A stretch of DNA of 64,000 nucleotides from an uncultured Candidatus Micrarchaeota archaeon (GCA_903835385.1 CAILMQ010000032.1:5976-69975), one strand, 5' to 3'; positions 16,035 through 64,000 are shown, counted from the stretch's first letter. Numbers and translations are program-made. The notes: generated by a model not told the origin, from the sequence alone.

Positions 16035-19000
16035 ATGGTTCCTAAGGCAGATATCAGTTTTACTGAGAAGGTTCTCCGTGCGTTCAAGAGAATAAGCTCA
16101 GAGATAACGATAGAAAGCCTCGAACACGACTTCAGCCCGCGCCTCGGCAGATTTTTCTGTGAGGAAGTCCTAGGATTTGACAGCAATCTTATCCGCTATG
16201 AACGAAGCCGCACCGATTTGACTATGCTGGATGAGAACGGCGCCCGTGTCGTTCTTATTGAAACCAAGCGCCCAAAGGAAAGCTTGGACGCTGAGAAATG
16301 GCGCGAGCAGGCAGGCAAATACGCAGACGCCTCCACTCGTTTCATTGGGCTGACTAATGGCTATCGTTTCCTTCTCTGGGAAGCTACAAAACAGGGCAGG
16401 ATTCTTCGGGTGGACCTGGATTTCAAGGCACTGGTTGACGCAAAGAGAGCATCTGAAGACAAAATATCCACCAGGGAAGCGGAGCAGATTCTTTACCTTG
16501 GCAATATAACCAAAGAGCAGGTTTGGAGCGAGGCAAAATACGGAAAGTTTGATGAATATTATGCCACGGTAGACGTTGCGGAAGAGAAAGGGTTTGAAAG
16601 GCTCATCGAACAGCTTAACTACATTTCAAATGACCTTATGAAGCAGTACACTTACGCAGCTTTTGACGAGTATTATGCAGGCTATGCGCAGTACAAACAG
16701 ACGAAGGGCGAACTCGATGAGATAAAGAAGGCGAATGGCAATAACAAAAAACATGCTGCTGACATAGCCCGCTACGAGCTGAAAACCGAGGGCAAATACA
16801 AGAAGTACTCCGACTTTTCTGGTTATTTCATCTGGAAAGCACTCTCCAACCGCCCGGATGACAAGGAAGAGGAGAACAAGCAGGTATTCTGCAAGGAATC
16901 AATCTACCTGCTCATAAACAGGCTGCTTTTCATCAGGATTTGCGAGGATAGGGGTTTGCTTGGCAAGAAAATATCCAACGGCGGCATTGAAAGGCTGCGC
17001 GAGCAGCTTGCCGAGCCCATTCTTGGGGAAACCGGCGTATTCAAACAGATAGTCCAGTTTTCCTATGGCGGGGCAAAGAACATCTACGGGCACTTCTACG
17101 AAAAGGACAATCCGCTTGACTGGTACGAAAGCGGCGATGGGGAGCTCGACAGGGCGCTTAACCGTGTGCTTTGGATTCTCAACCAGTTCAATTTCGCCAA
17201 AGTGGACAGGGACATTCTCGGCAAGCTTTACGAGAAATACCTGCCCAAGGACGAAAGGAAGAGGCTTGGCGAGTTTTACACCCCCGAGGAAGTCATTGAC
17301 TACATACTTGACGCTGTGGATTATGTTCCATCCAAGGCGATTGAGAATAAGGACCTGATAGACCCTGCCTGCGGTTCAGGCGGCTTCCTTGTCCGCGCCG
17401 CCAGGCGCCTGATTGCGCGGCAGGCGGTTAAATTCGGCAAGGCAACGCCGGCGGAGGCACTGAGCAACAAGCACTGGCCCGAAGTGTACGCGCGCCTGTC
17501 CCCGAAGGAGTGCGAGGAGATTGTGGACTCGGTTGCAATGCACATCCACGGCTTTGACATAAACCCGTTTGCGGTGAACATAAGCGAGATGAACCTGCTT
17601 TTCCAAGTCATTGACCTTTACTCAAAAGCCGTCAAGGAGAACAGAAGCTTCAAGATTTCGCGCTTCAAGGTATATGAAACCGACTCGCTTGAGATGCCCA
17701 CTGACCAAACCAACCTCGCGCACTTTTCAGGCGCGACAGGGAAAAGCCTTGCCAAGGATAAAGACGTAAGCGACGAGATGAAAAAGAAAAAGTACGATTT
17801 TGTGGTCGGGAATCCGCCTTGGCTAGGAATATTGAAAATGCAGAAGCAGACGATGGCTGCGTATATGAATTATCTTTCTGCTAAAGGAAAGTTCGACATT
17901 TACGTTCTTTTCATTGAACTTGGAACGAAAATGCTTAACAAAAATGGGAAGTTAGGGTATATCACTCAAAATCGTTTTCTTAAAGTCGGTTATGCTGAAG
18001 CTCTACGGGACTATCTTCAAAAGAATGTGGCACTCAGGCAGATTACTGACTTTGGAGACATAAAAATATTCTCAGATGCGACAAATTACCCCTGCATAAT
18101 TATCTTTGAAAATGACGTGCCAAGTTCATTCATTTACATCGAATTTAAATCCAAGGCCGAAGAAATAGCCTCAGAAGAACTGCTGTCTATTGTTCGGAAA
18201 CAGTGGTCTGAAACAAAATATAACGACGAGTATTTCAAACTCAGCACCATAAAACAGGAAACGCTGAATAGCTCAGGATGGAATATGAGTTCGGTCGGAA
18301 AAGGCTTCCTGATAAATCGGCTTAAAGAACTTGAAACCCTTGCGAATTATACGGAGAAGATAATGCAGGGCATTACTTGTGGTGGAGAGGGTTCAGATGA
18401 TATTTATTATGTGCTCAGACAGAATATCGAATCTTATAAAATCGAAGAACGTATTTTGAAGAGGGTTATGAGGGGAAAGAATATCCGAAAGTACTCGGCT
18501 TCATTTTGTAACGAAGACTTGTTGTTCCCTTATGAAACGAACGCGACACCGGTTGACTTGCGCCTCTATCCTGGTGCTGCGAGATACCTCGCTCAATTTA
18601 AGGACAAGCTAAGTGGCAGAGTATTGGATGGAAAGGGGATCATGCAGTGGAACAAGGAATGGTTTGAACTCTGGAGAGCAAGAGAACCGGATTTTTTTGA
18701 AAAGCAAAAAATAGTCTGTCCACGGATAGCTGAAAAGAACAGATTTGCTCTTGATGACACTGGCGCTTATTTGTCAGACTCGGCAATAGCCATTATCCCG
18801 AAAAAAATCAATATATATCTTCTTTTGGGGTTGCTGAACTCAAAACTTCTCGGTGCGTACATCACTGCGATATCACCGTTTGTTCAAGGCAAGTATTACA
18901 ATTATAGCAAAGGCTACGTTGAAAAATTACCAATTAAACTTCCCTCCAACAAAACCGAAGAAATAATTTCTGAAAAGATAACTTCAACGGTCAAAGAACT

Positions 19001-19133
19001 GATTAAACTCAAAAAGAAAGATGCAAACGCAGATACTAAGAAACTTGAGGACGGGATTGACGACCTCGTTTTTGACCTTTACGGCATAACGCCCGAAGAG
19101 CGCAAGATCATTGAAAAAGCGGTTAATGGATGA
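16035..19133 (+). CDS. type IIG restriction-modification enzyme: fused PD-(D/E)xK nuclease, N6-adenine methyltransferase and target-recognition region
   Basis: N-terminal TDLTMLD...VVLIETKRP nuclease-like motif. SAM motif DPACGSGGFLV. Catalytic motif VVGNPPW. Long C-terminal region, 1032 aa in one ORF. Confidence 0.8.
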   Translation: MVPKADISFTEKVLRAFKRISSEITIESLEHDFSPRLGRFFCEEVLGFDSNLIRYERSRTDLTMLDENGARVVLIETKRPKESLDAEKWREQAGKYADASTRFIGLTNGYRFLLWEATKQGRILRVDLDFKALVDAKRASEDKISTREAEQILYLGNITKEQVWSEAKYGKFDEYYATVDVAEEKGFERLIEQLNYISNDLMKQYTYAAFDEYYAGYAQYKQTKGELDEIKKANGNNKKHAADIARYELKTEGKYKKYSDFSGYFIWKALSNRPDDKEEENKQVFCKESIYLLINRLLFIRICEDRGLLGKKISNGGIERLREQLAEPILGETGVFKQIVQFSYGGAKNIYGHFYEKDNPLDWYESGDGELDRALNRVLWILNQFNFAKVDRDILGKLYEKYLPKDERKRLGEFYTPEEVIDYILDAVDYVPSKAIENKDLIDPACGSGGFLVRAARRLIARQAVKFGKATPAEALSNKHWPEVYARLSPKECEEIVDSVAMHIHGFDINPFAVNISEMNLLFQVIDLYSKAVKENRSFKISRFKVYETDSLEMPTDQTNLAHFSGATGKSLAKDKDVSDEMKKKKYDFVVGNPPWLGILKMQKQTMAAYMNYLSAKGKFDIYVLFIELGTKMLNKNGKLGYITQNRFLKVGYAEALRDYLQKNVALRQITDFGDIKIFSDATNYPCIIIFENDVPSSFIYIEFKSKAEEIASEELLSIVRKQWSETKYNDEYFKLSTIKQETLNSSGWNMSSVGKGFLINRLKELETLANYTEKIMQGITCGGEGSDDIYYVLRQNIESYKIEERILKRVMRGKNIRKYSASFCNEDLLFPYETNATPVDLRLYPGAARYLAQFKDKLSGRVLDGKGIMQWNKEWFELWRAREPDFFEKQKIVCPRIAEKNRFALDDTGAYLSDSAIAIIPKKINIYLLLGLLNSKLLGAYITAISPFVQGKYYNYSKGYVEKLPIKLPSNKTEEIISEKITSTVKELIKLKKKDANADTKKLEDGIDDLVFDLYGITPEERKIIEKAVNG

Positions 19134-19295
19134 AAAATAGTGAACACCGCCTGAAAGCAATTGGCGGAATGCACGAACTCGGAATAAATCCTATTTCTGC
19201 ACCCAAAGTCGCATGAACGACGACGTTTGGAAGCGAAGGGCGCCAGTACGCTGCGGAAATCGTTCTTTTTAAATTGTTCTAATTAAAGTCATTTT

Positions 19296-20051
19296 ATGAC
19301 TACTTTAGAAACACTAAAACAGCATAGGGACAAACCGAGCCCGGGTTACACCAGCCCGGAGAGGTTCAAATTCAGCTATCGCTACCCGCTTCTTTCAAGA
19401 ATAGAGAAAAAATTGAACAGGGTTGCCATAGGCGTGGCGCTTTTTTCGGCAATAGCAATAGGAGGCGCGAACCTGGGCACCTATTTTGATTACATTCGGA
19501 ACAATTTTGACTACGGGAAGTTCGGGAACAGGACAGCCATAAGCCTGAGGAACGCCCCGCAGAACGATGCGCTTTTGGAGGAGACGCTCAGGACCGCGAA
19601 ACTGGCGGTGGTCGGCCATGCCGCGCCACAGGAAGCGTCTCTTGAGCTGGAACTGGACAGGATGGGCGGTACCCTTTCAGCGCATTACCAGATGGTCTGG
19701 AACACGAACAAGGGAATGAAAAAAAGGGACGTCGAGGACATCACCATCACGTGGAAGCTTGATGCGCAGGGAAGGTTCGTGCCGCAGAAGGCGGTTACCC
19801 GCTATCATTACAAGACGGTCTGCTTCGACCTGCCGCAGTACAGGAAACCCGTGATAGTAATACAGAATCCCGCGCACACGCCGGGCATACCTGGCACGGT
19901 GCCCCACTACGCGAACAACGATTATGGCGTGGCGGACGTCTTCACGGATTTCAGCGCGGGAAAGTGGGCGGGCTCGTGCCTTTCAACCGGACTGCCACAG
20001 GAATTCAGGGCGCTCGGCGTTGACTTCCGGACGGAAATAAAAATAAAGTAG
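19296..20051 (+). CDS. membrane-anchored hypothetical protein
   Basis: 251-aa ORF with one TM helix (VAIGVALFSAIAIGGANLG). No known motif. Confidence 0.5.
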   Translation: MTTLETLKQHRDKPSPGYTSPERFKFSYRYPLLSRIEKKLNRVAIGVALFSAIAIGGANLGTYFDYIRNNFDYGKFGNRTAISLRNAPQNDALLEETLRTAKLAVVGHAAPQEASLELELDRMGGTLSAHYQMVWNTNKGMKKRDVEDITITWKLDAQGRFVPQKAVTRYHYKTVCFDLPQYRKPVIVIQNPAHTPGIPGTVPHYANNDYGVADVFTDFSAGKWAGSCLSTGLPQEFRALGVDFRTEIKIK

Positions 20052-28848: not shown

Positions 28849-28942
28849 GGGCCTGTAGCTCAGCTTGGTAGAGGATGAAATATCCACCAAAAGCGACGGA
28901 CTCTTAATCCGTGTGTCGAGAGTTCAAATCTCTCCAGGCCCG
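28849..28942 (+). tRNA. tRNA-Lys(CTT) with a 20-nt BHB intron in the D-arm (between positions 22 and 23)
   Basis: Exons assemble to GGGCCTG TA GCTC AGCTTGGTA GAGC G ACGGA CTCTTAA TCCGT GTGTC GAGAG TTCAAAT CTCTC CAGGCCC G. Intron 28872..28891. BHB: central helix TGGT/ACCA, 5' bulge AGA, 3' bulge AAA, inner helix GGAT/ATCC. Confidence 0.85.
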
Positions 28943-34095: not shown

Positions 34096-34116
34096 CGCCG
34101 TATGCATACATTATAC

Positions 34117-34369
34117 GGGCTAGAGTGGGGCCAGGGGTCCCAGCACCGCAAATCCCCTTAGGCGGCTCGAATGCCCGGGGCGTTGCCTGTTTCAGTTGCG
34201 CCTCTTTTCCTGAAGCGTAGACGTTCTGCCCTGTGTGGCGGAATGCCTCGTGAACCGGGTCAGGCCGAAAGGAGCAGCCCTAAGCGTTTCATTCCGTGCT
34301 CGCAGGACACAGAATCGAGCAGATGGACTGGAGCTCCACAGCTGTTTCAGCCGGCAAACCGGGAAGCCC
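34117..34369 (+). ncRNA. ffs: signal recognition particle (7S) RNA
   Basis: Helix-8 core GGGTCAGGCCGAAAGGAGCAGCCC with a GAAA tetraloop. Flanking helix-5 pairings: GGAATG/CATTCC, CTGTGT/ACACAG and GCTCGA/TCGAGC. The 5' GGGCT pairs with the 3' AGCCC. The exact ends are uncertain. Confidence 0.75.
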
Positions 34370-34414
34370 ATATTTCGTTAGTCTCCAGTTTTCAGTCTCG
34401 AGTTTTGCCTCAGG

Positions 34415-40716: not shown

Positions 40717-41379
40717 ATGGCGCGTGCGGTAGTGTTCGACTTCGACGGCGTGGTCGTGAAGAGCGAGCCGCTGCACTGCCGGACTTTCAGCGAGACGCTC
40801 GCCCCCCTGGGAATACGCATAGACCGGAGGCGCTGGTACAAGGAGTTCGCAGGCACCGGCTCGCACAGCATAATCGCCCGGCTGCTTGAGGAGAACGGAG
40901 TGAAGGCGGATATCGCTGCGCTCGTGAAATCGCGCAAGGAACGCTTCAGCGCCTGCGTGCGCCGGGGCGGGCTCAGGCCGACCAGGGGGCTTCGCAGGTT
41001 CCTGGCAATGATAAGAAAAAAGGGGATAATGACCGCCATAGCTTCGGGTGGGCACAGGGAGAACATCGAGCTCATATTGGGAAAACTCGGGCTGCTGGGG
41101 CAGTTCGATGCCATTGTCGGCTGCGAAGAGGCGAAGAACAGGAAGCCGCATCCGGAGATTTTCCTGAGAGCCGCGGAGCGGCTAGGGGTGCCTCCCGGCC
41201 AGTGCGTTGCCGTGGAGGACTCCATACCCGGCGCGGAATCGGCGAAAAGGGCGGGCATGGCGCTCGTGTGTTTCGATTCCCCGGCGAGCAAGTTTTTAAA
41301 TAACCCGTGCAGCAGAATGATAAACAGCTTCTCGGAGTTCCCGCTTGAGTTGCTGGATGGTTTCCATGATAAGGCTTGA
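40717..41379 (+). CDS. HAD-superfamily hydrolase (beta-phosphoglucomutase-like subfamily IA)
   Basis: VVFDFDGVVV (motif I), TASGG, K...PE.F and VEDS..G..SA..AGM (motif IV). Confidence 0.8.
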   Translation: MARAVVFDFDGVVVKSEPLHCRTFSETLAPLGIRIDRRRWYKEFAGTGSHSIIARLLEENGVKADIAALVKSRKERFSACVRRGGLRPTRGLRRFLAMIRKKGIMTAIASGGHRENIELILGKLGLLGQFDAIVGCEEAKNRKPHPEIFLRAAERLGVPPGQCVAVEDSIPGAESAKRAGMALVCFDSPASKFLNNPCSRMINSFSEFPLELLDGFHDKA

Positions 41380-42535
41380 GCTGGACCGGAAAAAGCGTTC
41401 CGTGAGCGTAAGGGAGCCGGCCGACGTCTCCTCTCTGCAGAACGGCTTCTACGGCCAGATGAAAAAGGGAGTGATAACGCTTTCGCCCGAGGAATCGCTT
41501 TACATAATGGACATACGGAACGGCAGGTGCTACGACGAAACCGGCAACGCCCTCACTTTCAACGGCCTCGCCTCGCTTTTCCTGAAGCAAAGAAAACTGC
41601 TGGCGCGCTATCTCACCTACAAGGACTGGAGGGACAAGGGGTTGATTGCGCGCGACGCAAGTGAGGCAACCGGCAATTACGGAAGGACGGCTATAAAGAA
41701 GTACACCGGCGGCAAGCTGGAACTGGATGCCTATTCGTTCGAGGGCGTGTTCTTCCCCGACGACCTGCTCACGGTGCTGGACGACGAGGTTGTCGGCAGG
41801 GAGCTATACGAGCGGCACTGGATAGGCCAGTTCGGGACCTACAAGGCCGCCCACAGGGGCAGGATAACCAAGCTCGACATCTACGAGACCGTGTTCCTGA
41901 TGAAGCACGGCGGGCTGCGGCTGGCGAACTCGGACCTCAAAAAGGTGGTTTCCGCGGCCTCCAAGCGCCTAAGGTTTTTCGCTGAGATGTACGAGGTCTA
42001 CGAGGACTGGATGAAGCGCGGCTACGTGGTGAAGAGCGGCTTCAAGTTCGGCACGCACTTCAGGATATATTTCCCCGGCGCCTCGCCCGTGCGGCTGGAG
42101 GCCGACTGGATGCACTCCAAGCACGTGCTCCATGTGTTCCCGCGCCGCGCGAAGATGATAATATCCGAATGGGCGCGCGCCATAAGGGTCGCGCACTCGG
42201 TGAAAAAAACGTTCATACTCGCTATTCCTGGCAAGGCCAGGGCGTCCAAAGCGAAGCGCCCTGTGCTGGACTTCCTCCTCTACCACCGCAAGGACGGCGG
42301 CATCGAGACGCCCAAGGACGGAAGCCCGAAATACCTCATGTACTCTCTTACCGAAGACGAGTACATAGGCGGCGAGGAGCTCGCCGGCGCGCTGGACGAG
42401 TGCAGGAAATTCGGCCTTGAGATGATAATGGCGATATCGGATAGGGAATCGTCGGTCACGCAGTACATGATAAGGCGCATCGCGCTTCCCGGAAGCGATT
42501 ACGAATACTTTGAAATTGAGTGGGTTCAGCCATGA
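41366..42535 (+). CDS. endA: tRNA-splicing endonuclease, long multi-unit form
   Basis: About 390 aa, roughly twice the size of a single EndA unit. Catalytic-unit signature GFKFGTHFRIYFPG...HSKHVLHV...HSVKKTFILA. An N-terminal EndA-like unit (YLTYKDWRDKGLIAR) and an extra C-terminal unit. Start ambiguous (41345, 41357 or 41366). Confidence 0.8.
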   Translation: MIRLELDRKKRSVSVREPADVSSLQNGFYGQMKKGVITLSPEESLYIMDIRNGRCYDETGNALTFNGLASLFLKQRKLLARYLTYKDWRDKGLIARDASEATGNYGRTAIKKYTGGKLELDAYSFEGVFFPDDLLTVLDDEVVGRELYERHWIGQFGTYKAAHRGRITKLDIYETVFLMKHGGLRLANSDLKKVVSAASKRLRFFAEMYEVYEDWMKRGYVVKSGFKFGTHFRIYFPGASPVRLEADWMHSKHVLHVFPRRAKMIISEWARAIRVAHSVKKTFILAIPGKARASKAKRPVLDFLLYHRKDGGIETPKDGSPKYLMYSLTEDEYIGGEELAGALDECRKFGLEMIMAISDRESSVTQYMIRRIALPGSDYEYFEIEWVQP

Positions 42536-49531: not shown

Positions 49532-49668
49532 GGGCCTGTAGCTCAGCTCGGTTAGAGCGACGGTCTTATATGGCACGTTCTAATACACGGTTATTAGGAC
49601 GAGTCTGGGCTAGCCGTAGAGGGGTCAAGACCCCGCGGAAGTCCGGAGTTCAAATCTCCGCAGGCCCA
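49532..49668 (+). tRNA. tRNA-Ile(TAT) with two BHB introns (anticodon loop 37/38 and variable loop 45/46)
   Basis: Exons: GGGCCTG TA GCTC AGCTCGGTTA GAGC G ACGGT CTTATAA GCCGT AGGTC CGGAG TTCAAAT CTCCG CAGGCCC A. Introns at 49571..49611 (41 nt) and 49620..49640 (21 nt). The BHB-rule splice sites fix the anticodon as TAT. Confidence 0.8.
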
Positions 49669-51725: not shown

Positions 51726-52703
51726 CTATTCTTCCGCCCGAGGAGGCGTTTGGGGCGTTCCGAACGTCCTCATCTGCATCAGCCTGCTTTTGGTGCCCTG
51801 CTCCCCCATGAGCATCACCATCTCCCTTATCCCTTCGGCAAGCGGCCTCGGGCTGAAGCCGAGCTCTTTTTCCGCCCTGGAGCAGTTGAACTGCCTGTCG
51901 CTGGAAAGCACTGCGATGTCCTCCGGCATGAACTTCGGCTTTGTCTTGGACAGCGATGAGCGGATGGACGACAGCTGCGCCATCAGCGCGGCGAGCGGCA
52001 CCGGCACGTGCTTCCTGGGCGGCTCCACGCCGAGCTCCTTTGCGGCGATTTCATAAACCTCGTTCTGGGTAAGGCACTCGCCCACAAGCACGTAGACGCC
52101 CCTGCCATCGGAAATCGCCGCCCTGATTGCTTGGGCCACGTCTTCCGCATGAACGAACGGGACATGGTTGTTTCCGCTGCCGAGCACGCGCATGCTGCCC
52201 TCCTTGAGCATGCGAAGCACCTTGAAGTACTCCTCGAACCCAGGGCCGTACATGGGGCCTATTCTCAGGATGACGTGGTCCGGCTTTGACGCGATGATTT
52301 TCTCGGCCTGGAGCTTGGTTTTCGCATATGGCGTGTCCGGGCGCGTGGCAGTGCCCTCGTCGGCAGGAATTTGCGCGAGCCGCTTGCCGTAAACCGATAT
52401 GGAACTGGCGAAGATTATGCGGGCCGTGGGAGGAATCGCGGTGGCCAGCCTCTGGGTGAGTATGACGTTGCCCTCGCGTGCCTTTTCCATGTCCAGGAAA
52501 TCGCGTGATGCCGCCAGATGTATGACCACGTCGGCATTCCGGAGCATGCGCTCCAGGTCGTGGAAGGAATAGTCGGTGACAATCTCGCCCTTGAGCCCCG
52601 ATGGCTTCCGCACCAGTGGGACGGCTTCAGGAACCTGCTTCAGCACTTCCCTTCCGAGCCTGCCCGAGGCTCCGGTGATGTATATGTTCTTCCCTGCCAT
52701 CAT
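51726..52703 (-). CDS. NAD-dependent epimerase/dehydratase (extended SDR)
   Basis: IYITGASGRLG Rossmann motif and a YAKTK active-site motif (YxxxK). Confidence 0.8.
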   Translation of the reverse strand: MMAGKNIYITGASGRLGREVLKQVPEAVPLVRKPSGLKGEIVTDYSFHDLERMLRNADVVIHLAASRDFLDMEKAREGNVILTQRLATAIPPTARIIFASSISVYGKRLAQIPADEGTATRPDTPYAKTKLQAEKIIASKPDHVILRIGPMYGPGFEEYFKVLRMLKEGSMRVLGSGNNHVPFVHAEDVAQAIRAAISDGRGVYVLVGECLTQNEVYEIAAKELGVEPPRKHVPVPLAALMAQLSSIRSSLSKTKPKFMPEDIAVLSSDRQFNCSRAEKELGFSPRPLAEGIREMVMLMGEQGTKSRLMQMRTFGTPQTPPRAEE

Positions 52704-54292
52704 TTACGCCCCATTTCCATGATTCTTTTGTCCAGCTGCTTCTCGGCCTCGAGCCGCTCGAACTCGTAATCGTTCATGTCCACGAATTTCATGTGCCTGG
52801 CAAGCGAGGGGTGCACGCGCTTGATTTCCCCATACATCCCCTGCGCCACCCTCCGGTAATCGATGTGCCCCTGCCTGGCGGAGCGCAGCTCGCAGAACTG
52901 GAACGCCTCGCGCAGCGAGAGCGCCATCTGCCACCTTATGCGGTAGGCGAGCGGGACCGCGTATTGCGCCTCGTGCGGATATGTTTTTGCCATTGCACCC
53001 CAGGCGTTCTTCGCAGCTTCCATGGCGTTGCGGAACTCGCCTTCATGGCCGGAGTCCACGATTTCTTTCGGAAGCGTGTAGCCGTGCAGGCAGCCCAGCT
53101 GCTGCCTCTGCTGGGTGAGCATCCTGTGCCTGTGGATGTCGCGGTAGCATCCGAAGTTCGCGCAGATGTCGAACGTGTACCTTGCGGATTCGAAGCCCCG
53201 GCCAGGCTTGTGCCTGCGGTTGATCCGGTTGCCACAGTAGGAGGAGATTATTTTATTGCGCTGGTCTTGGGTCATGCGTCTTGAGTCTTGGATAAGCGTT
53301 GCCATGGAACTATGAGTGAATGGGTAAAGGGCGGCTGCGACCACGCGCTCTTCCGCGTCCCGCTCGTAATCCACCAGAACGACGTCTTCCGCATCCGGCT
53401 CGGCCTTGAATCCGGAGCCGATTTTGTCGAGCCTCGTTTCCTTTATGTAATTCTGCATGATTAGCCCGAGCTCGGTGTCGGGCCGCTTCACGAACGACGG
53501 AATCGTGGTCCTGAGTTCCGCCTGCATGGATGCCGCGAGCGCCCTGGTTTCCGGGAGCGGGTCCGCGTACATTTTGGTTATCAGGTATTCGTACGCCCTC
53601 CCGTTCCCGAAGAAGCCCATGTTGGTCTTCGTGGAAGCCGGAAGCAGGCCGCGGATGATGTCGCAGGTCTTGGAGCGCACAATCGCCTCAACCGCCCTTT
53701 CGCTCAGGCCCTTTTTCTCGTCTTCGCCCAGGCGCTCGGAAACGTATTTCGAGATTTTCGGTATGAGCTTGGCGTAGGTTTCGAAAAGCAGGTCGCATGT
53801 CTCCACGTAGCCGCCGAGCGCCTCCAGTTGCGCGTCGCAATAGTATTTCCACTTTCCGTCCGCGCCCTTCTGGTCGAAATAGACGTAGCGCGTGGATTTC
53901 TCAAGAGGCGAGAGGCCGATGCGCGCGTCCTCCAGGACCTTGGTCGCGATTATGGAGATGCCCTCCAGTGCGATGTGCGCGCCGGCCAGCTCTGCCACGG
54001 AATCGTCGCCGTAGCCGAGCAGCACGCGGTCGTAGAACGCCTCGGCTTTCTCGGTTGCCACGAGGCCCTCGAACCCGCCTCCGGACGCGCTCCCCGCGTC
54101 GAAACCGATTTCCTTGTTTTTTATGAACTCGTCCAGCAGCGTGCGCCTGAGGCTCTTGGCTGAGCGCGAATAACGTGAAAATAGCGCGCCCTTCACCACC
54201 TCGGGCAGGTTCCGCAGCACGAACACCGGCCGCTCGAGGTTGGATACGAAGGGGGCGAGGAGCCTTTTCTCCTCCTCAGAGAATTCTTCCAT
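52700..54292 (-). CDS. ThyX-like (Thy1 family) protein, long ~530-aa form
   Basis: The C-terminal half has YRDIHRHRMLTQQRQ, resembling the ThyX RHR motif, but the following Ser/Tyr positions differ. Confidence 0.55.
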   Translation of the reverse strand: MEEFSEEEKRLLAPFVSNLERPVFVLRNLPEVVKGALFSRYSRSAKSLRRTLLDEFIKNKEIGFDAGSASGGGFEGLVATEKAEAFYDRVLLGYGDDSVAELAGAHIALEGISIIATKVLEDARIGLSPLEKSTRYVYFDQKGADGKWKYYCDAQLEALGGYVETCDLLFETYAKLIPKISKYVSERLGEDEKKGLSERAVEAIVRSKTCDIIRGLLPASTKTNMGFFGNGRAYEYLITKMYADPLPETRALAASMQAELRTTIPSFVKRPDTELGLIMQNYIKETRLDKIGSGFKAEPDAEDVVLVDYERDAEERVVAAALYPFTHSSMATLIQDSRRMTQDQRNKIISSYCGNRINRRHKPGRGFESARYTFDICANFGCYRDIHRHRMLTQQRQQLGCLHGYTLPKEIVDSGHEGEFRNAMEAAKNAWGAMAKTYPHEAQYAVPLAYRIRWQMALSLREAFQFCELRSARQGHIDYRRVAQGMYGEIKRVHPSLARHMKFVDMNDYEFERLEAEKQLDKRIMEMGRK

Positions 54293-57219: not shown

Positions 57220-57936
57220 TTATTTGGCTTTTTTCGGCTTTACGAGTGGTTCTTCTGCGGTGAACGTCATCGCCCCGTTTAGAAGAGGGATCTCCATCAC
57301 TACCGCATATTTGTTGGGCGAATCCTCAACCACCTTGGCGGTAACGCCAATTTTCGCAGTTGATTTGTTCAAAGCGCCCAGGAAAGCGGCGGCAAATTCC
57401 TGCGCAGTTTTTTTGGGCCCGAGTACCAACTGAAGGGTGGCGCCTCCGTTATAATTGCCTTCCTCCTTGTCCTTCAGGTACGGCTCGTAGGCAAGAACAA
57501 AGGATGCCACATCTATTTTTGCTGGAAGCGTGACGCCGGTCTTTTTCGCAGCTGCGTTGATGGCATCGCCAAGAGGCCCGGATGCGATTGCCTCGCCTGC
57601 TGCAGGCGAGGTTCTTTCACCGGCCGCCTTCTGCGTGAAGACGACGCTGGTTCCGCTGGCCGTGACCTCCATGGTTTTCGCATATTGCTCGTATAGCCCG
57701 GCTTTCTTGAGTTCGGATGTGAACACTGAAACGAATTGCTTTGCTTTTCCTGCGTTGTTGAAATCCTGCTCCACGCTTGCGTTGGGCTTGTTCCTTCCGT
57801 TCGCGAAATCCCTGAGGTCGGAGAATATCTGATGGTCCGGAGGCACCGAGATATTCACCTTTTTCAATGCGGTTTTTGCAGCGGCAATGACAGCCGGTTC
57901 CAGATTCTGCGGCGCATTCATTTGTGCTTGAGCCAT
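57220..57936 (-). CDS. hypothetical protein
   Basis: 238-aa ORF, Ala/Lys-rich, no motif. Confidence 0.45.
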   Translation of the reverse strand: MAQAQMNAPQNLEPAVIAAAKTALKKVNISVPPDHQIFSDLRDFANGRNKPNASVEQDFNNAGKAKQFVSVFTSELKKAGLYEQYAKTMEVTASGTSVVFTQKAAGERTSPAAGEAIASGPLGDAINAAAKKTGVTLPAKIDVASFVLAYEPYLKDKEEGNYNGGATLQLVLGPKKTAQEFAAAFLGALNKSTAKIGVTAKVVEDSPNKYAVVMEIPLLNGAMTFTAEEPLVKPKKAK

Positions 57937-57941
57937 TCATA

Positions 57942-58637
57942 TCACCTTTGTATCATGCATCCGTTTAGCATGCATCCGCGCATGTTTTGGTAGAGCGTCA
58001 ATGTATCTCCTTTCCCGTTTTTAAGCCATTGCTCCACTGCGTCTGCCAGCTTCGGGAAGCCGTGCGACCGTATGGAACCCAAATATGCTTTCGTGTATGG
58101 GTGCTCCGGCTTTTCCTGCCTTCCTTCCAGGGACCAGACCCTCAGGATGGTGCCTGTATGAGTGGATACTGATGCCATCATTATCGCGAGCTGGTCTTTT
58201 GGGGTGAAATCCTCGGCTTCCCTGAATATGCCCAATTCCACGGCAAGCCAGTCCGCCGCCTCTTTTGCCGAGGTTATCCTTGGAGCCAGCGGGTCAAGCT
58301 TTTTGTACCGCTGGATGAGCGAATCATAATCATTGTTGAGCAGCGCCTTCATCACAACAGTACCGGGCAGGACTCTCAGGGATGCAGTTAGCGAAGACGT
58401 GGCCTCTTCCCGTTCCTGCTGCGGGCTCTTCTCAGGCATGAACCTGCCATTATCCCGGGTCGGCCTGGGTTTGCCCTGCTGCGGTTTCGCGGCCGCAAGG
58501 GCGTTTTCGTCCCTCGGCGCCTGGGGGAGCGCGTGCGCTGCGGGCTCGTACGACGGCAAATGCAAGACGAAACCGAGCGCGGCAACGGTTATGGCGTTCC
58601 TGACCGTATGGGGGCAGCTCCGCATTAAACCTCTCAT
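57942..58637 (-). CDS. secreted hypothetical protein
   Basis: N-terminal hydrophobic segment AITVAALGFVLHL. No motif. Confidence 0.45.
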   Translation of the reverse strand: MRGLMRSCPHTVRNAITVAALGFVLHLPSYEPAAHALPQAPRDENALAAAKPQQGKPRPTRDNGRFMPEKSPQQEREEATSSLTASLRVLPGTVVMKALLNNDYDSLIQRYKKLDPLAPRITSAKEAADWLAVELGIFREAEDFTPKDQLAIMMASVSTHTGTILRVWSLEGRQEKPEHPYTKAYLGSIRSHGFPKLADAVEQWLKNGKGDTLTLYQNMRGCMLNGCMIQR

Positions 58638-60298: not shown

Positions 60299-60382
60299 CA
60301 AACGCTGTAAAGCCGTGGTTTTTTAAACTGTTTGCCTCATTTATACACTTACTATTACCTATAATGGCAGAGGTGTAAGGGG

Positions 60383-61795
60383 ATGGCAGGAAAACCAGGT
60401 GCTTCATTCAGAGATATCCGGGCAGCACTACTCAAGGGAGGCGCTGGCGCAACCGGGCCAACATCGGCAGCAAGGCCGCCGGAAAAAGCAGCTGCGCCGT
60501 TCAAGGCGCAGCCAGACGCGCATGCGCCTGCCCCTGTCCGGCCGAGAGAGATAAGATTCGGGCATCCGCCGGCAGTGACTCCGTCGAAAGCACGGCCAAC
60601 CGTTGCGCCGCAAACGCTTCCACCTGCGCCTGTTCCTGCTGCAGCGCCGGATCCGGCAATGACCACTGCGCGTGATGGCCCTGATGAGGTCATAACAGCG
60701 CAATGGCCAGGAAACGATGCGCCTCCGGCCGCTCCCGCTGCATTGCCTGCAGCTGCTCCGGCTGCCGCAGTTCCACTGCAAGCGCCTCAGCCTGCAACTG
60801 CCCCTGTCCAAGACGGCTGCCGGGCGACAGCAAATGCCCCCAGAAAACCGAGCGAATCTTTTATCGTGCTTTCCGAAATGAGACTGGACGGCTCGGCATT
60901 CGCGGAAATCGCGGTGCGGGGGGACAGTGTGGAAGGCGGCGCGGTCATCAAAATAGGCAAGCTCCCGAGTTCGCATCTCCAGATTGAAGACGAAACGGTT
61001 TCGAGGATGCATGCGACCATAGAACTGTCCCATGGCGAGTGCCGGATAGATGACCTTAATTCCCCCAATGGCACTTTTGTGAATGGAGAAAGAATCGGCA
61101 ATTGTCCGCTTAAGGAAGGCGACACGATAGTAGTCGGGTCCGTGATATTGAAGGTGAGGAAGATAGTGCATTCCACTGCCGAGCCAACTTCAGAGCCGGC
61201 GCCTGAACCTGTTCAAGCGCCAGTTCCAATCGCCAGGCCGCCGCCTGCGGCTCCTCAGGTTCAGGCTCGCGCTGACCCCCCGCTTGCCCATGGGCCAGAA
61301 CCGCCCCAAGCCGAGCGCCCGGCTAAGAAGCCGCTTACCAACAGGGGGTTGGCGGCCAGAGTCGGGCTCCTGATTGTTGGCGGTTTCCTCGTATGCGCGG
61401 GCGGTATTTATGCCCACAACTACCTTAATGGAAAAGACGCAGCCGCGAAGCGGGGCGCACGCATAGCACAGATGACTGATGAATTCCGCTCATGCAGGCC
61501 CGGGAGCGAGCAGAAAAAACGGCTGGCCGTGAAATGCATGAGCGACACGGAAAGAACCGCCCTGCTGGAAAGCGCCGAGGGGTATAAACATAGCGGGCAA
61601 TACAAGCAGGCCGGGCTCATATATGCCGAACTCGGGGAGCTGACGGACGCAGACAGCATGGTCAGGAAGTGCAATGAAGGGGACAGGCTGCCTGGCGGCA
61701 ATGTCAGAAACCAGGACCCCAAAGGCGCCGAGCAAATCACTGAAATGACCAGGATGAGGAGCGAAGCGCTCGAGAAATCAGTGCGGTCCAAATAA
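60383..61795 (+). CDS. membrane protein: conserved N-module, PA-rich linker, one FHA domain, TM helix, conserved Cys-containing C-domain
   Basis: FHA core IKIGKLPSSHLQIEDETVSRMHATIEL...DLNSPNGTFVNGERI. TM helix VGLLIVGGFLVCAGGIY. C-domain FRSCRPGS...KC. Confidence 0.8.
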   Translation: MAGKPGASFRDIRAALLKGGAGATGPTSAARPPEKAAAPFKAQPDAHAPAPVRPREIRFGHPPAVTPSKARPTVAPQTLPPAPVPAAAPDPAMTTARDGPDEVITAQWPGNDAPPAAPAALPAAAPAAAVPLQAPQPATAPVQDGCRATANAPRKPSESFIVLSEMRLDGSAFAEIAVRGDSVEGGAVIKIGKLPSSHLQIEDETVSRMHATIELSHGECRIDDLNSPNGTFVNGERIGNCPLKEGDTIVVGSVILKVRKIVHSTAEPTSEPAPEPVQAPVPIARPPPAAPQVQARADPPLAHGPEPPQAERPAKKPLTNRGLAARVGLLIVGGFLVCAGGIYAHNYLNGKDAAAKRGARIAQMTDEFRSCRPGSEQKKRLAVKCMSDTERTALLESAEGYKHSGQYKQAGLIYAELGELTDADSMVRKCNEGDRLPGGNVRNQDPKGAEQITEMTRMRSEALEKSVRSK

Positions 61796-61806
61796 GGGGA
61801 AGGTGC

Positions 61807-63420
61807 ATGGCGATGGCAGGAGGAAAAGGCGCTGGGTTCTCGGATATCCGGGCAGCGCTCCTCAGAGGGAACGCTGGTGCAACCGGGCCTGCCCAGGCAG
61901 CAAGGCCGCCGGCTAAATCAGCTGCGCCGTTCAAGGCACAGCCAGACGCGCATGCGCCTGTTGCGCCGCCGGTTCCGGTTCAGCAGCCAACCGCCCCTCA
62001 AGCTCAGGCTGGTCCGGCTGTCGCGTCGCCGGCTCCAACCAATGCCCGGGTGACAGTAAACGCTCCCATAAACCCGAACAAATCATTCGTCGTGTTTTCA
62101 GAAATCGGGGCGGACGGCTCGGCATTCGCGGAAATCGAGGTGCATGGGGAAGACTATGCAAGAGGCGACTCCGTCATCAAAATAGGCAAGTTCGCGAGTT
62201 CGCATGTCCACATCGATGACCCGTCAGTTTCCAGGATGCATGCGGTGATAGAACTATCCGAGAATGATTACAAGATAATTGACCTTGGTTCCACCCGAGG
62301 CACTTTTATCAATGGAGAGAGAGTCACCAAAGGGCCGCTTAAGGAAGGCGACACGTTGAAATTCGGGGATGTGGAATTGAAGGTGACGAGGATAGCATAC
62401 GACTCCGGTGAGCGGACTCCGGAGCCTGCACCTGTCCCTGTTCGAGCGCCAGTTCCAATGGCCATACTGCCGCCTCAGGCCCAAGCCCAGCCGCCGGCGG
62501 ATGGTGCGCCGGGTCCAGCCAAAGCGCAATCAGGCCAGCGTGCAGCCGCTCCTCTAAATGCCAACAGAGTCTTGATCGTGCTTTCCGAAGTGGTGCCCGA
62601 GGGTTCGGCAGGCCGGATGTTCGCAGGGTCCAAGGAATTGGATTCACAAGGCCGTGCAGCCATCATGATAGGCACGCTCGAGGGTTCGGATGTCCGCGTT
62701 GATGCCGAAACGGTTTCCAGGAAGCATGCGGTAATAAACGCGTCAGCGGACGGTTGCGAGATAGTTGACCTTGGCGCACAGCACGGCACTTTTGTCAATG
62801 GAGAGAGAATCGCCAAATGCTGGCTTGACGAAGACGACACCATAGCACTCGGGGATGTTAAATTGAAAGTGACGCGGATGATGCGCGCCGCTGCGCCAAT
62901 CGCGAAGCTGGTGCAGACGTCCGCCGAACAGCAGTTACTGCTGCATGCAGCCCTTGACAGGGAGCTTCAGGTGAAATCATCTCTTGACGCCGCGGACAGG
63001 CAGGTGAAGAGAGCACGCACCGCTGTTTTGATAAGTTTCGCTCTTTGCCTTGCAACCGACGTCGCAGGCGGAATCGTCTGCTACAGGATGCATAAAATAA
63101 ACAAGGCCTATGCCGAGCATGATGCCGTGACGGAAAGGTGGGCGGACTACTACTTCAGGCAATGCAGGCCCGGGAGCAAGGTGCCCGGATGCGCAAACGA
63201 GATGATGAGGAACCCGAAATTCGAAAGCGGCGAGGAATACGAGCTTGCCGGAAAATACGCCATCGCAGGGGTGGCGTACGCCCTGCGCGGAAATGTGCTG
63301 GATGCCAACAGGATGAAGAACAAATGCATGGAAAGGCACGACCTTGCAGGCGCGCAAAGAATCGCGGACACGGTCATGGACATTGCCGAAGCGCTCCATA
63401 AGTCCGTGCCGGCCAAATAA
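61807..63420 (+). CDS. paralogous membrane protein: same N-module, two FHA domains, TM helix, same C-domain
   Basis: FHA1 IKIGKFASSHVHIDDPSVSRMHAVIEL...GSTRGTFINGERV. FHA2 IMIGTLEGSDVRVDAETVSRKHAVINA...GAQHGTFVNGERI. C-domain FRQCRPGS...KC. Confidence 0.8.
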   Translation: MAMAGGKGAGFSDIRAALLRGNAGATGPAQAARPPAKSAAPFKAQPDAHAPVAPPVPVQQPTAPQAQAGPAVASPAPTNARVTVNAPINPNKSFVVFSEIGADGSAFAEIEVHGEDYARGDSVIKIGKFASSHVHIDDPSVSRMHAVIELSENDYKIIDLGSTRGTFINGERVTKGPLKEGDTLKFGDVELKVTRIAYDSGERTPEPAPVPVRAPVPMAILPPQAQAQPPADGAPGPAKAQSGQRAAAPLNANRVLIVLSEVVPEGSAGRMFAGSKELDSQGRAAIMIGTLEGSDVRVDAETVSRKHAVINASADGCEIVDLGAQHGTFVNGERIAKCWLDEDDTIALGDVKLKVTRMMRAAAPIAKLVQTSAEQQLLLHAALDRELQVKSSLDAADRQVKRARTAVLISFALCLATDVAGGIVCYRMHKINKAYAEHDAVTERWADYYFRQCRPGSKVPGCANEMMRNPKFESGEEYELAGKYAIAGVAYALRGNVLDANRMKNKCMERHDLAGAQRIADTVMDIAEALHKSVPAK

Positions 63421-63449
63421 AAGCCGTAATTTCTTAACTGGGAAGGGGC

Positions 63450-64000
63450 ATGAAGATGGCAGACGGAAAAGGCACCAGATTTGCGGACATCAGGAAGGCA
63501 CTCCTTAAGGGAGGCACTGGTGCACCAATGCCGGCCCAGGCAGCAAGGCCGCCGGAAAAGGCAGTGGAACCGTTCAAACCACAGCCAGACCCGCATGCTG
63601 CTGCTCTGGTTCAGCCGGCAACCCCAACGAAAAGAGCGGCGCCGGTCGCCAGGCCGCAGGCGCCTAAAGTTGAAATGGTTCAGCCTCCAGCTCAGGAGCC
63701 AACCACTGCTCAGGAAATGACCCAAAAGCTGGAATATGAACTCGATTGTCAACTTCTGAAAGCTTCTGTAGAAAACGACCTCGATGCCGCGATGCGGGCG
63801 CTCGAAAATGGAGCGGATGTTAATGTTAGAAATGTTCATGACCGGACCCCGCTGATGGTGGCTGCTAAGAAGGGTCACACGAAAATTGCAGAGCTGCTGG
63901 TTGCGAAAGGCGCTGATGTCAATGCGAAAGATGAAGATGGCAGGACTGCGCTGGAGCTGGCGAAACGGAGCAATCGAAAAAATCGAAAAGAGATTGTGGC
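63450..64000 (+). CDS. third array member (partial, runs off the window): same N-module fused to ankyrin repeats
   Basis: MKMADGKGTRFADIRKALLKGGTGA...PFKPQPDPHA, then LLKASVENDLDAAMRALENGADVNVRNVHDRTPLMVAAKKGHTKIAELLVAKGADVNAKDEDGRTAL. No stop before the window end. Confidence 0.75.
   Translation, partial: MKMADGKGTRFADIRKALLKGGTGAPMPAQAARPPEKAVEPFKPQPDPHAAALVQPATPTKRAAPVARPQAPKVEMVQPPAQEPTTAQEMTQKLEYELDCQLLKASVENDLDAAMRALENGADVNVRNVHDRTPLMVAAKKGHTKIAELLVAKGADVNAKDEDGRTALELAKRSNRKNRKEIV

Follow-up and report, generated by a model that had tools for sequence, protein, structure and literature searches.

The mycobacterial proteins FhaA (Rv0020c) and FhaB/FipA (Rv0019c) are FHA adaptors that are linked to the membrane or envelope and carry long disordered linkers rich in Pro and Ala. 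ArnA is a soluble regulator of the archaellum that combines a zinc ribbon with an FHA domain and works with the vWA protein ArnB and with known kinases. GltG is built from an FHA domain, a disordered linker, a second FHA domain, a transmembrane (TM) helix and a TonB-like domain. GltI, a TPR scaffold in the cytoplasm, is the predicted docking site of its N-terminal FHA domain (PMC11761067). In this study we analyze three adjacent genes, here called p1, p2 and p3, at the right edge of a 64,000-nucleotide stretch of DNA from an uncultured Candidatus Micrarchaeota archaeon (GCA_903835385.1, CAILMQ010000032.1:5976-69975; the whole stretch is called the window). Their products share an N-terminal module of about 50 residues (N-module). 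We find that this undescribed N-module extends recognizable FHA and ankyrin membrane proteins of GltG-like architecture by a peptide that is limited to one clade.

An earlier note on this DNA had described three same-strand genes that join the N-module to one FHA domain, to two FHA domains and to ankyrin repeats, and both the open reading frames and the Pfam domains verify this. All array features lie on the + strand. Gene p1 (60383-61795) encodes 470 aa: the N-module (aa 1-50, 60383-60532), a Pro/Ala linker of ~110 aa, one FHA domain (aa 189-252, 60947-61138; Pfam E 2.4e-17, 63.5 bits, PF00498 cutoff 20.7), another linker, a TM helix (aa 321-345, 61343-61417; Kyte-Doolittle 19-residue mean 1.96, model helix 324-370) and a small, helical, TPR-like C-domain with three Cys (aa 346-470, 61418-61792). 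Gene p2 (61807-63420) encodes 537 aa, or 535 aa from the conserved ATG at 61813. It consists of the N-module (61813-61962, placed by N-terminal and codon alignment), FHA1 (aa 125-187, 62179-62367), FHA2 (about aa 284-349, 62656-62853), a TM helix (aa 405-426, 63019-63084, from hydropathy) and a C-domain (63085-63417, from similarity to that of p1); Pfam finds the two FHA domains at E 5.7e-35 (120 bits, same cutoff). Gene p3 begins at 63450 and runs past the window edge at 64000, so that the window holds the first 183 of its 245 aa (full-length form P0123). It has the N-module (63456-63605, placed by the same alignments), a linker and ankyrin repeats (aa 102-176, 63753-63977), which Pfam finds at E 7e-17 (Ank_4 61.5 bits, Ank_2 51 bits), also in full-length P0123. 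The linkers are of low complexity with ~25% Pro and ~25% Ala, as in FhaA and FhaB. The gaps between the genes are 11 nt (p1-p2) and 29 nt (p2-p3). Pfam gave no significant match on the first ~55 residues, nor on the C-terminal ~110 residues of p1 and p2.

The best NCBIfam model for the array proteins is GltG (NF033760), at 77-145 bits against a cutoff of 650, covering the FHA region and its flank only. The array FHA domains carry the signature of Myxococcus xanthus GltG, KIGK(L/F)(A/P)SSH...VSRMHAV...DLGSTRGT (in p1, of a GltG/AgmX-like subtype, KIGK..SSH..VSRMHA..NGT). Both p2 and gene A of the closest relative (L001, see below) also follow the GltG order of FHA domain, disordered linker, FHA domain and single TM helix, with a C-domain that is probably extracytoplasmic. 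In contrast to GltG, the array proteins have the extra N-module and linker before the first FHA domain, which in the bacterial proteins starts at residue ~1, their C-domain is not TonB-like, and their host is archaeal. A further difference is that no MotA/TolQ/ExbB domain of an Agl/Tol-type motor was found among the window genes scanned. Metagenome contigs with the signature KIGK..SSH..VSRMHAV..DLGSTRGT encode proteins with the FHA domain at residue 1 and a TonB-like C-terminus. Among the matches listed, the closest outside the family are bacterial 'AgmX/PglI C-terminal domain-containing' proteins, mostly from Myxococcota (58-62% over the FHA domain), and searches with full-length p1 and L001 gene A list only the proteins themselves, their paralogue and bacterial FHA proteins. 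The FHA part would appear to be of bacterial origin.

The other described systems show more limited likeness. The array FHA domains match FhaA and FhaB at the FHA level (PDB, NCBIfam). However, the FHA domain of FhaA is C-terminal and the TM helix of FhaB is N-terminal, so that the domain order differs; the NCBIfam FhaB model gives 43-64 bits against a cutoff of 125, and neither protein has an N-module or an ankyrin paralogue as partner. Sulfolobus ArnA is likewise an archaeal FHA protein and gives a weak PDB match (5a8i, E 1.4e-4), but neither the zinc ribbon nor the partnership with ArnB and kinases is a feature of the array. The YscD/PrgH proteins of the type III secretion system (T3SS) share the order of cytoplasmic FHA domain, TM helix and outer domain, and PF16697 scores above its cutoff where it overlaps the FHA match. 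Ring-building periplasmic domains and T3SS genes are nevertheless absent, and the PF16697 match is explained by general FHA similarity. Foldseek with the full p1 model returned FHA structures only, as weak matches, and the PADLOC defense models gave no match for the FHA proteins.

The array FHA domains may or may not bind phosphothreonine, because the canonical phosphate-binding Arg is Lys or Thr. While S-R-x-H is kept in all window copies, Lys takes the place of the GR-motif Arg in p1 and in FHA1 of p2, and Thr does so in FHA2. The FHA domains of GltG are predicted to act independently of phosphorylation. The Asn of the NG motif is kept in p1 and replaced by Arg or His in p2 (His in FHA2). 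The same phosphate-site substitutions occur in the bacterial GltG-like FHA subtype. The lack of a kinase or phosphatase nearby, pointed out before, was borne out: the window genes scanned hold no protein kinase or PP2C domain and no eukaryotic protein kinase (ePK) catalytic-loop motif.

The N-module and its distribution

The three window N-termini share 29 invariant alignment columns and 65-75% identity. In p1 the module has an M-A start and a predicted helix at F9-G19 (FRDIRAALLKG), followed by AARPPEK..PFKxQPDxH. In tblastn searches within the 64-kb window each copy finds the others at E 1e-19 to 1e-23; there is no fourth site, and nothing else reaches E 0.004.

The view that the N-module belongs to no described family held in Pfam, NCBIfam, PADLOC and the PDB. 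At E<=1 Pfam returned a sub-threshold PROL5-SMR match alone (E 0.1, a low-complexity Pro-rich match on p3), NCBIfam and PADLOC returned nothing on the module at E<=0.01, and the best PDB match has an E of 0.12. An exhaustive HMMER hmmsearch of 1.84 billion (1.84e9) cluster representatives with an N-module profile gave p3, p2 and one repeat protein only, and hence no further N-module protein. The repeat protein, P0124 (1135 aa), has nine tandem repeats of ~37 aa with AEPFKGQP(E/D)FE, resembling the N-module core A(A/E)PFK.QPD. We judged it more probably a repeat-inflated chance match, in which nine weak matches sum to E 2.9e-6, than a case of a shared short motif. Pattern scans for the module found nothing in GTDB genomes, JGI metagenomes and IMG/VR.

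The gene prs lies beside p1. A search of GTDB genomes with prs retrieved 80 Micrarchaeota loci, by which the source genome is identified as that of a Micrarchaeota (DPANN) archaeon. The remaining window genes are archaeal housekeeping genes and the tRNA genes presumably contain introns, which agrees with an archaeal origin of the array. Only one of the 80 related loci, the closest (L001, OY970229.1), contains the array. The N-module is thus confined to this organism and its closest sequenced relative.

In L001, where prs is 86% identical to that of the window, the array occupies the same site between prs and dus. Gene A (721 aa; its full-length form is on record as P0125) has an N-terminal module, two FHA domains, a TM helix and two C-domains. 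Gene B (482 aa) has an N-terminal module, two FHA domains (Pfam 99.5 bits) and a tail anchor that is 65% identical to that of p3. The third gene between prs and dus encodes a Cys-rich secreted protein and is syntenic with the gene after p3. The two N-termini are colinear with the window module (M-A start, F/L-x-x-I/F-R-A-A-L-L/V, PP.AK, EP(F/H)K.QP); their coding DNA is 47-49% identical to that of the window, and the residue pattern is nonetheless kept. Smith-Waterman scores between window and L001 modules lie above those of composition-preserving shuffles in 6 of 6 pairs (p = 0.0005-0.03). Homology of the window and L001 N-modules is supported by position plus these modest statistics.

The earlier note had the array continuing beyond the right edge, but it stops at p3. 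Two ENA contigs of the same organism (ERZ1426835/ERZ1426843) extend beyond the window, and on both p3 is followed by the gene for a 309-aa protein that has no Pfam match; dus (opposite strand), SIS, YgaP-like TM and PGM genes follow. The more distant locus L002 (prs 71% identical) has prs, the Cys-rich protein gene and dus in a row and lacks the array, and in other Micrarchaeota prs is followed by the gene for a small soluble ankyrin protein. Since neither has the array after prs, the array is a clade-specific insertion or expansion. Within this conserved block it forms a hypervariable island, because the flanking genes of window and L001 are 81-95% identical and the array proteins only 41-46%.

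Related architectures were seen on other contigs. On a Micrarchaeota contig (L081, 3058-4617, Ga0326726_10026158) a 519-aa protein consists of a GltG-type FHA domain, ankyrin repeats, a TM helix (hydrophobic segment) and again ankyrin repeats. Its gene sits between those of AlaRS (67% identical to that of the window) and GPI, which adjoin in the window. This fusion, as read from its domains, supports a functional link of the FHA and ankyrin paralogues. Proteins of 542 to 563 aa on two other contigs (L093, 5323-6951, and L097; Ga0315273_10000797, Ga0315275_10000200) have a different short N-terminal helix and a Pro/Ala linker of ~230 aa, followed by a GltG-type FHA domain, a TM helix resembling that of p1 and a Lys-rich tail. 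Their genes are clustered with those of large coiled-coil proteins that have no known function. These contigs are probably also from Micrarchaeota, because a HAD-like neighbor is 46% identical to Micrarchaeota genes. The N-termini of the L081 and L093 proteins were rejected as relatives of the N-module (no similarity, p above 0.1).

Translation and evolution of the array

The codon alignment places the common start of the three genes at ATG-GCA, which is the second ATG of p2 (61813) and of p3 (63456). A Shine-Dalgarno-like GAGGTG (60370-60375, + strand) lies 7 nt before the p1 start, and p2 (AAGGTG) and p3 (AAGGGG) have theirs likewise 7 nt before ATG-GCA. The AAGGGG run once ascribed to each gene takes this position in p3 only, while a Shine-Dalgarno-like motif is present in all three. 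Motif, ATG-GCA and long open frames are kept in all five genes of both species, and the p1 frame is open for 165 codons ahead of an alternative start (M166). Each pair of N-module copies has 7-13 codons that differ synonymously where the residue is conserved, third-position changes dominate, and the ratio of nonsynonymous to synonymous change (dN/dS) is 0.3-0.5. On the grounds of the conserved, suitably spaced ATG-GCA, the open frames and the excess of synonymous over non-synonymous changes, we regard the N-module as translated.

The genes probably also share a promoter. A putative archaeal core promoter of p1-p2-p3 (60320-60359, + strand; TTTATA box at 60340-60345) can be read from the sequence, and this region is identical at 39 of 41 nt to the region upstream of L001 gene A (L001 10866-10905). 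It is far better conserved than the N-module coding DNA (~48%). Given this difference and the short intergenic gaps, p1-p2-p3 would form one operon behind a maintained promoter. An oligo-T run at 60319-60324 probably terminates transcription of prs.

Two N-modules of the same genome are 65-77% identical, and those of different genomes only 38-43%. The picture is different for FHA1 of p2, which is closer to its counterpart in L001 gene A (63% identity) than to the FHA domain of p1 (56%). Accordingly, dN of the N-module rises from 0.19-0.26 for copies in one genome to 0.75-0.80 for copies in different genomes; between genomes it is 0.26 for FHA1 (p2 and L001 gene A) and 0.07 for prs. Because N-modules cluster by genome and FHA1 clusters across genomes, the data point to concerted evolution: the N-modules may be homogenized within a genome, or co-evolve, while diverging fast between species. 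The earlier note had proposed a recent duplication or gene conversion, but the process was not very recent, as dS between N-modules (0.38-0.9) is comparable to that of prs between the two species (0.61).

The identical DNA runs reported for these genes are real. The 16-mer GCAGCAAGGCCGCCGG occurs exactly three times, once per N-module (expected 0), and a 35-mer with one variable base is common to p1 and p2. The 16-mer encodes A-A-R-P-P (60467-60482, 61897-61912 and 63540-63555) and is identical at every synonymous site, whereas neighboring codons vary. This identity could reflect a short conversion tract or a constraint at the nucleotide level.

Membrane topology and possible roles of the N-module

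The array proteins had been viewed as modular membrane proteins, and a membrane anchor is indeed predicted for all three. The TM helix and C-domain shared by p1 and p2, also noticed before, are 34% identical (E 1e-14). Full-length p3 (P0123) has a C-terminal TM helix beyond the window (aa 215-243 of 245, Kyte-Doolittle 2.71). It is a predicted tail anchor: as the usual criteria demand, the protein's only TM helix lies no more than ~30 residues from its C-terminus, and a signal peptide is lacking at the other end. Because p3 and L001 gene B both end in such an anchor and have no signal peptide, an N-terminal part such as the 215 aa of p3 would not be exportable, and we infer that the N-module, linker and FHA or ankyrin parts are cytoplasmic. 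By extension from this topology, p1 and p2 would have their N-terminus inside and their C-terminus outside, with a C-domain that is probably extracellular. The C-domain is modeled as a confident helical bundle (pLDDT 81-93). A PDB profile search matched it to the TPR region of IFT144 (E 2.4e-5), Pfam TPR matches stay below the cutoff (best E 0.007), and the C-domain model found nothing in Foldseek at E below 0.8.

For the N-module itself, AlphaFold2 (AF2) with the three-sequence alignment gives a low-confidence prediction in which residues 9-18 form a helix, whereas the remainder of the module and the linker have no structure. The helix has a hydrophobic moment of 0.53 and a mean hydrophobicity of -0.10. 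A lipid-binding amphipathic helix of the MinD type is unlikely in view of this mean hydrophobicity and of an invariant Arg on the hydrophobic face.

Our preferred reading, which we put forward tentatively, is that the operon encodes membrane adaptors with the N-terminus inside, and that the shared N-terminal helix and Pro-rich peptide dock all of them to one common partner. The N-module, with its short amphipathic helix, invariant R-A-A-L core and Pro-rich stretch, would be an unfolded docking peptide at the tip of a flexible tether and might bring the three adaptors to one partner, or to each other. Each paralogue would supply a distinct reader, FHA for a (phospho)peptide and ankyrin repeats for a protein surface, and p1 and p2 would reach the cell exterior through their C-domain. 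If all copies have to match one fast-evolving partner, this might explain why they co-vary, whether through selection or through gene conversion of the tandem 5' ends.

Several findings weigh against this reading. The pLDDT of the N-module in the three-sequence model is 32-46, i.e. of low confidence. Reciprocal hidden Markov models of window and L001 N-modules gave no cross-match, and the homology of the L001 N-termini rests on position and shuffle tests. Concerted evolution rests on two genomes, in which it is inseparable from lineage-specific replacement. As the FHA domains have a dN/dS of 0.7-1.0 and the codon usage of the array genes is atypical, relaxed constraint is also possible. Moreover, a second gene caller, applied to a 75.8-kb contig, omits the N-module and shortens p1 to 305 aa (from M166) and p2 to 456 aa (from a GTG). 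These calls are probably explained by atypical codon usage: the GC content at third codon positions is 0.51-0.62 in the array genes and 0.75-0.85 in most housekeeping genes, and the coding log-odds are low.

The shorter gene calls bear on the idea that the shared 5' end is a neutral by-product, carried along by tandem duplication or gene conversion and either functionless or untranslated, with genes that start internally. The atypical codon usage would fit this idea as well, as would the 16-mer that is identical in three copies down to its synonymous sites and the absence of the N-module from the Micrarchaeota FHA membrane proteins of L081 and L093. However, we consider it unlikely in the face of the Shine-Dalgarno-like motif, ATG-GCA and open frames in five of five genes, the low dN/dS with many synonymous changes at conserved residues, and a residue pattern that is retained across species at ~48% nucleotide identity. 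The full-length form is, in addition, recorded for L001 gene A and on the two ENA contigs.

Alternatively, the N-terminal helices of the paralogues might bind each other and build a hetero-oligomeric membrane complex, where co-variation keeps a homotypic interface compatible. Higher N-module identity within than between genomes, an amphipathic helix with an invariant RAAL core and tightly spaced genes on one strand could all be understood in this way. But a predicted helix of ~10 residues is short for a stable oligomer, a heptad pattern is absent and the AF2 structure is not confident, so that self-association, while plausible, is not a likely explanation either.

An autoinhibitory phospho-switch as in GarA and OdhI, in which the FHA domain would turn partner binding off by capturing a phosphorylated Thr in the N-terminal peptide of the same protein, appears more doubtful still. 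These proteins do resemble the array in the order of short conserved N-terminal peptide, flexible linker and FHA domain, in the PDB no sequences match the p1 FHA domain better (E 1.3e-8), and the N-modules have a Thr at GAT-GP (p1, p2) or GGT-GAP (p3). Yet GarA and OdhI are soluble with a single FHA domain, whereas p3 carries the N-module with ankyrin repeats in place of FHA. FHA domains prefer phosphothreonine, and the L001 modules have Ser rather than Thr in the relevant stretch. The ETTS phospho-motif is also absent, the NCBIfam GarA/OdhI model (NF041660) gives 39-82 bits against a cutoff of 200, and a kinase, as mentioned, was not found.

Ankyrin proteins are common effectors in bacterial symbionts. 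It is nevertheless hardly credible that the N-module is a double-glycine leader or another export or sorting signal, for example for FHA and ankyrin effectors delivered to the host cell of this episymbiont: although it sits at the extreme N-terminus in every copy, ends in LLKGG in p1 and p3 and is accompanied by NCBIfam Dot/Icm Ank effector matches (at the repeat level only), the double-glycine-like site of the earlier note is kept in two of three window copies and in neither L001 homologue (two of five in total; p2 has LLRGN), a Tat or Sec signal was rejected on sequence for want of a hydrophobic core and a twin-arginine motif, the window genes scanned include no C39-peptidase/ABC exporter domain, and all three proteins carry their own membrane anchors.

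Returning to docking, a bolder and quite improbable version would make the N-module a clade-specific, fast co-evolving 'address tag' that plugs FHA, FHA-FHA and ankyrin readers into one membrane machine at the contact of symbiont and host, while its conserved DNA doubles as a recombination handle for swapping domains. The recombination part is suggested by genes with the same p3-type tail anchor, which carry ankyrin repeats in the window and two FHA domains in L001.

DPANN genomes are small, and locally expanded, fast-evolving membrane adaptors are hence a candidate for a cell-cell interface or for envelope regulation. The array would add an archaeal FHA-based system besides ArnA, and it might offer a compact case, found in nature, of a short peptide module that evolves in concert while domains are swapped. 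With a scope of two species, its present value is that of a defined target for interaction screening rather than of a new mechanism.

Further features of the window and its surroundings

The Cys-rich secreted protein (L001 14598-15548; L002 2744-3466; to judge from L001, also the gene after p3 on the ENA contigs) is a conserved neighbor that precedes dus and follows the array or, where this is missing, prs. The L001 protein contains a putative eight-cysteine-cluster domain (TIGR04289, 48 bits with a cutoff of 50). Two genes away from the array lies an adjacent pair (57220-57936 and 57942-58637, both on the - strand) without Pfam or NCBIfam match, one of which encodes a hydrophobic segment at the N-terminus. 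Of the 80 Micrarchaeota loci, the window and L001 alone carry this pair (81-84% identical), so that it shares the phyletic pattern of the FHA/ankyrin array.

A low-GC island at 16035-20051 (46-49% compared to ~58%) encodes a 1032-aa restriction-modification methylase of the Eco57I/MmeI type, and a mate from its 90%-identity cluster is annotated in another Micrarchaeota metagenome-assembled genome. The island is likely mobile or horizontally acquired. At 52700-54292 (- strand) a 530-aa ThyX has two Thy1 stretches, which suggests a flavin-dependent thymidylate synthase that was duplicated or fused. Two tRNA genes (28849-28942, 94 nt; 49532-49668, 137 nt) are recognized by Rfam and not by ARAGORN and presumably contain introns. 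The window also encodes a 396-aa tRNA-splicing endonuclease (41345-42535) and a signal recognition particle RNA (34115-34371).

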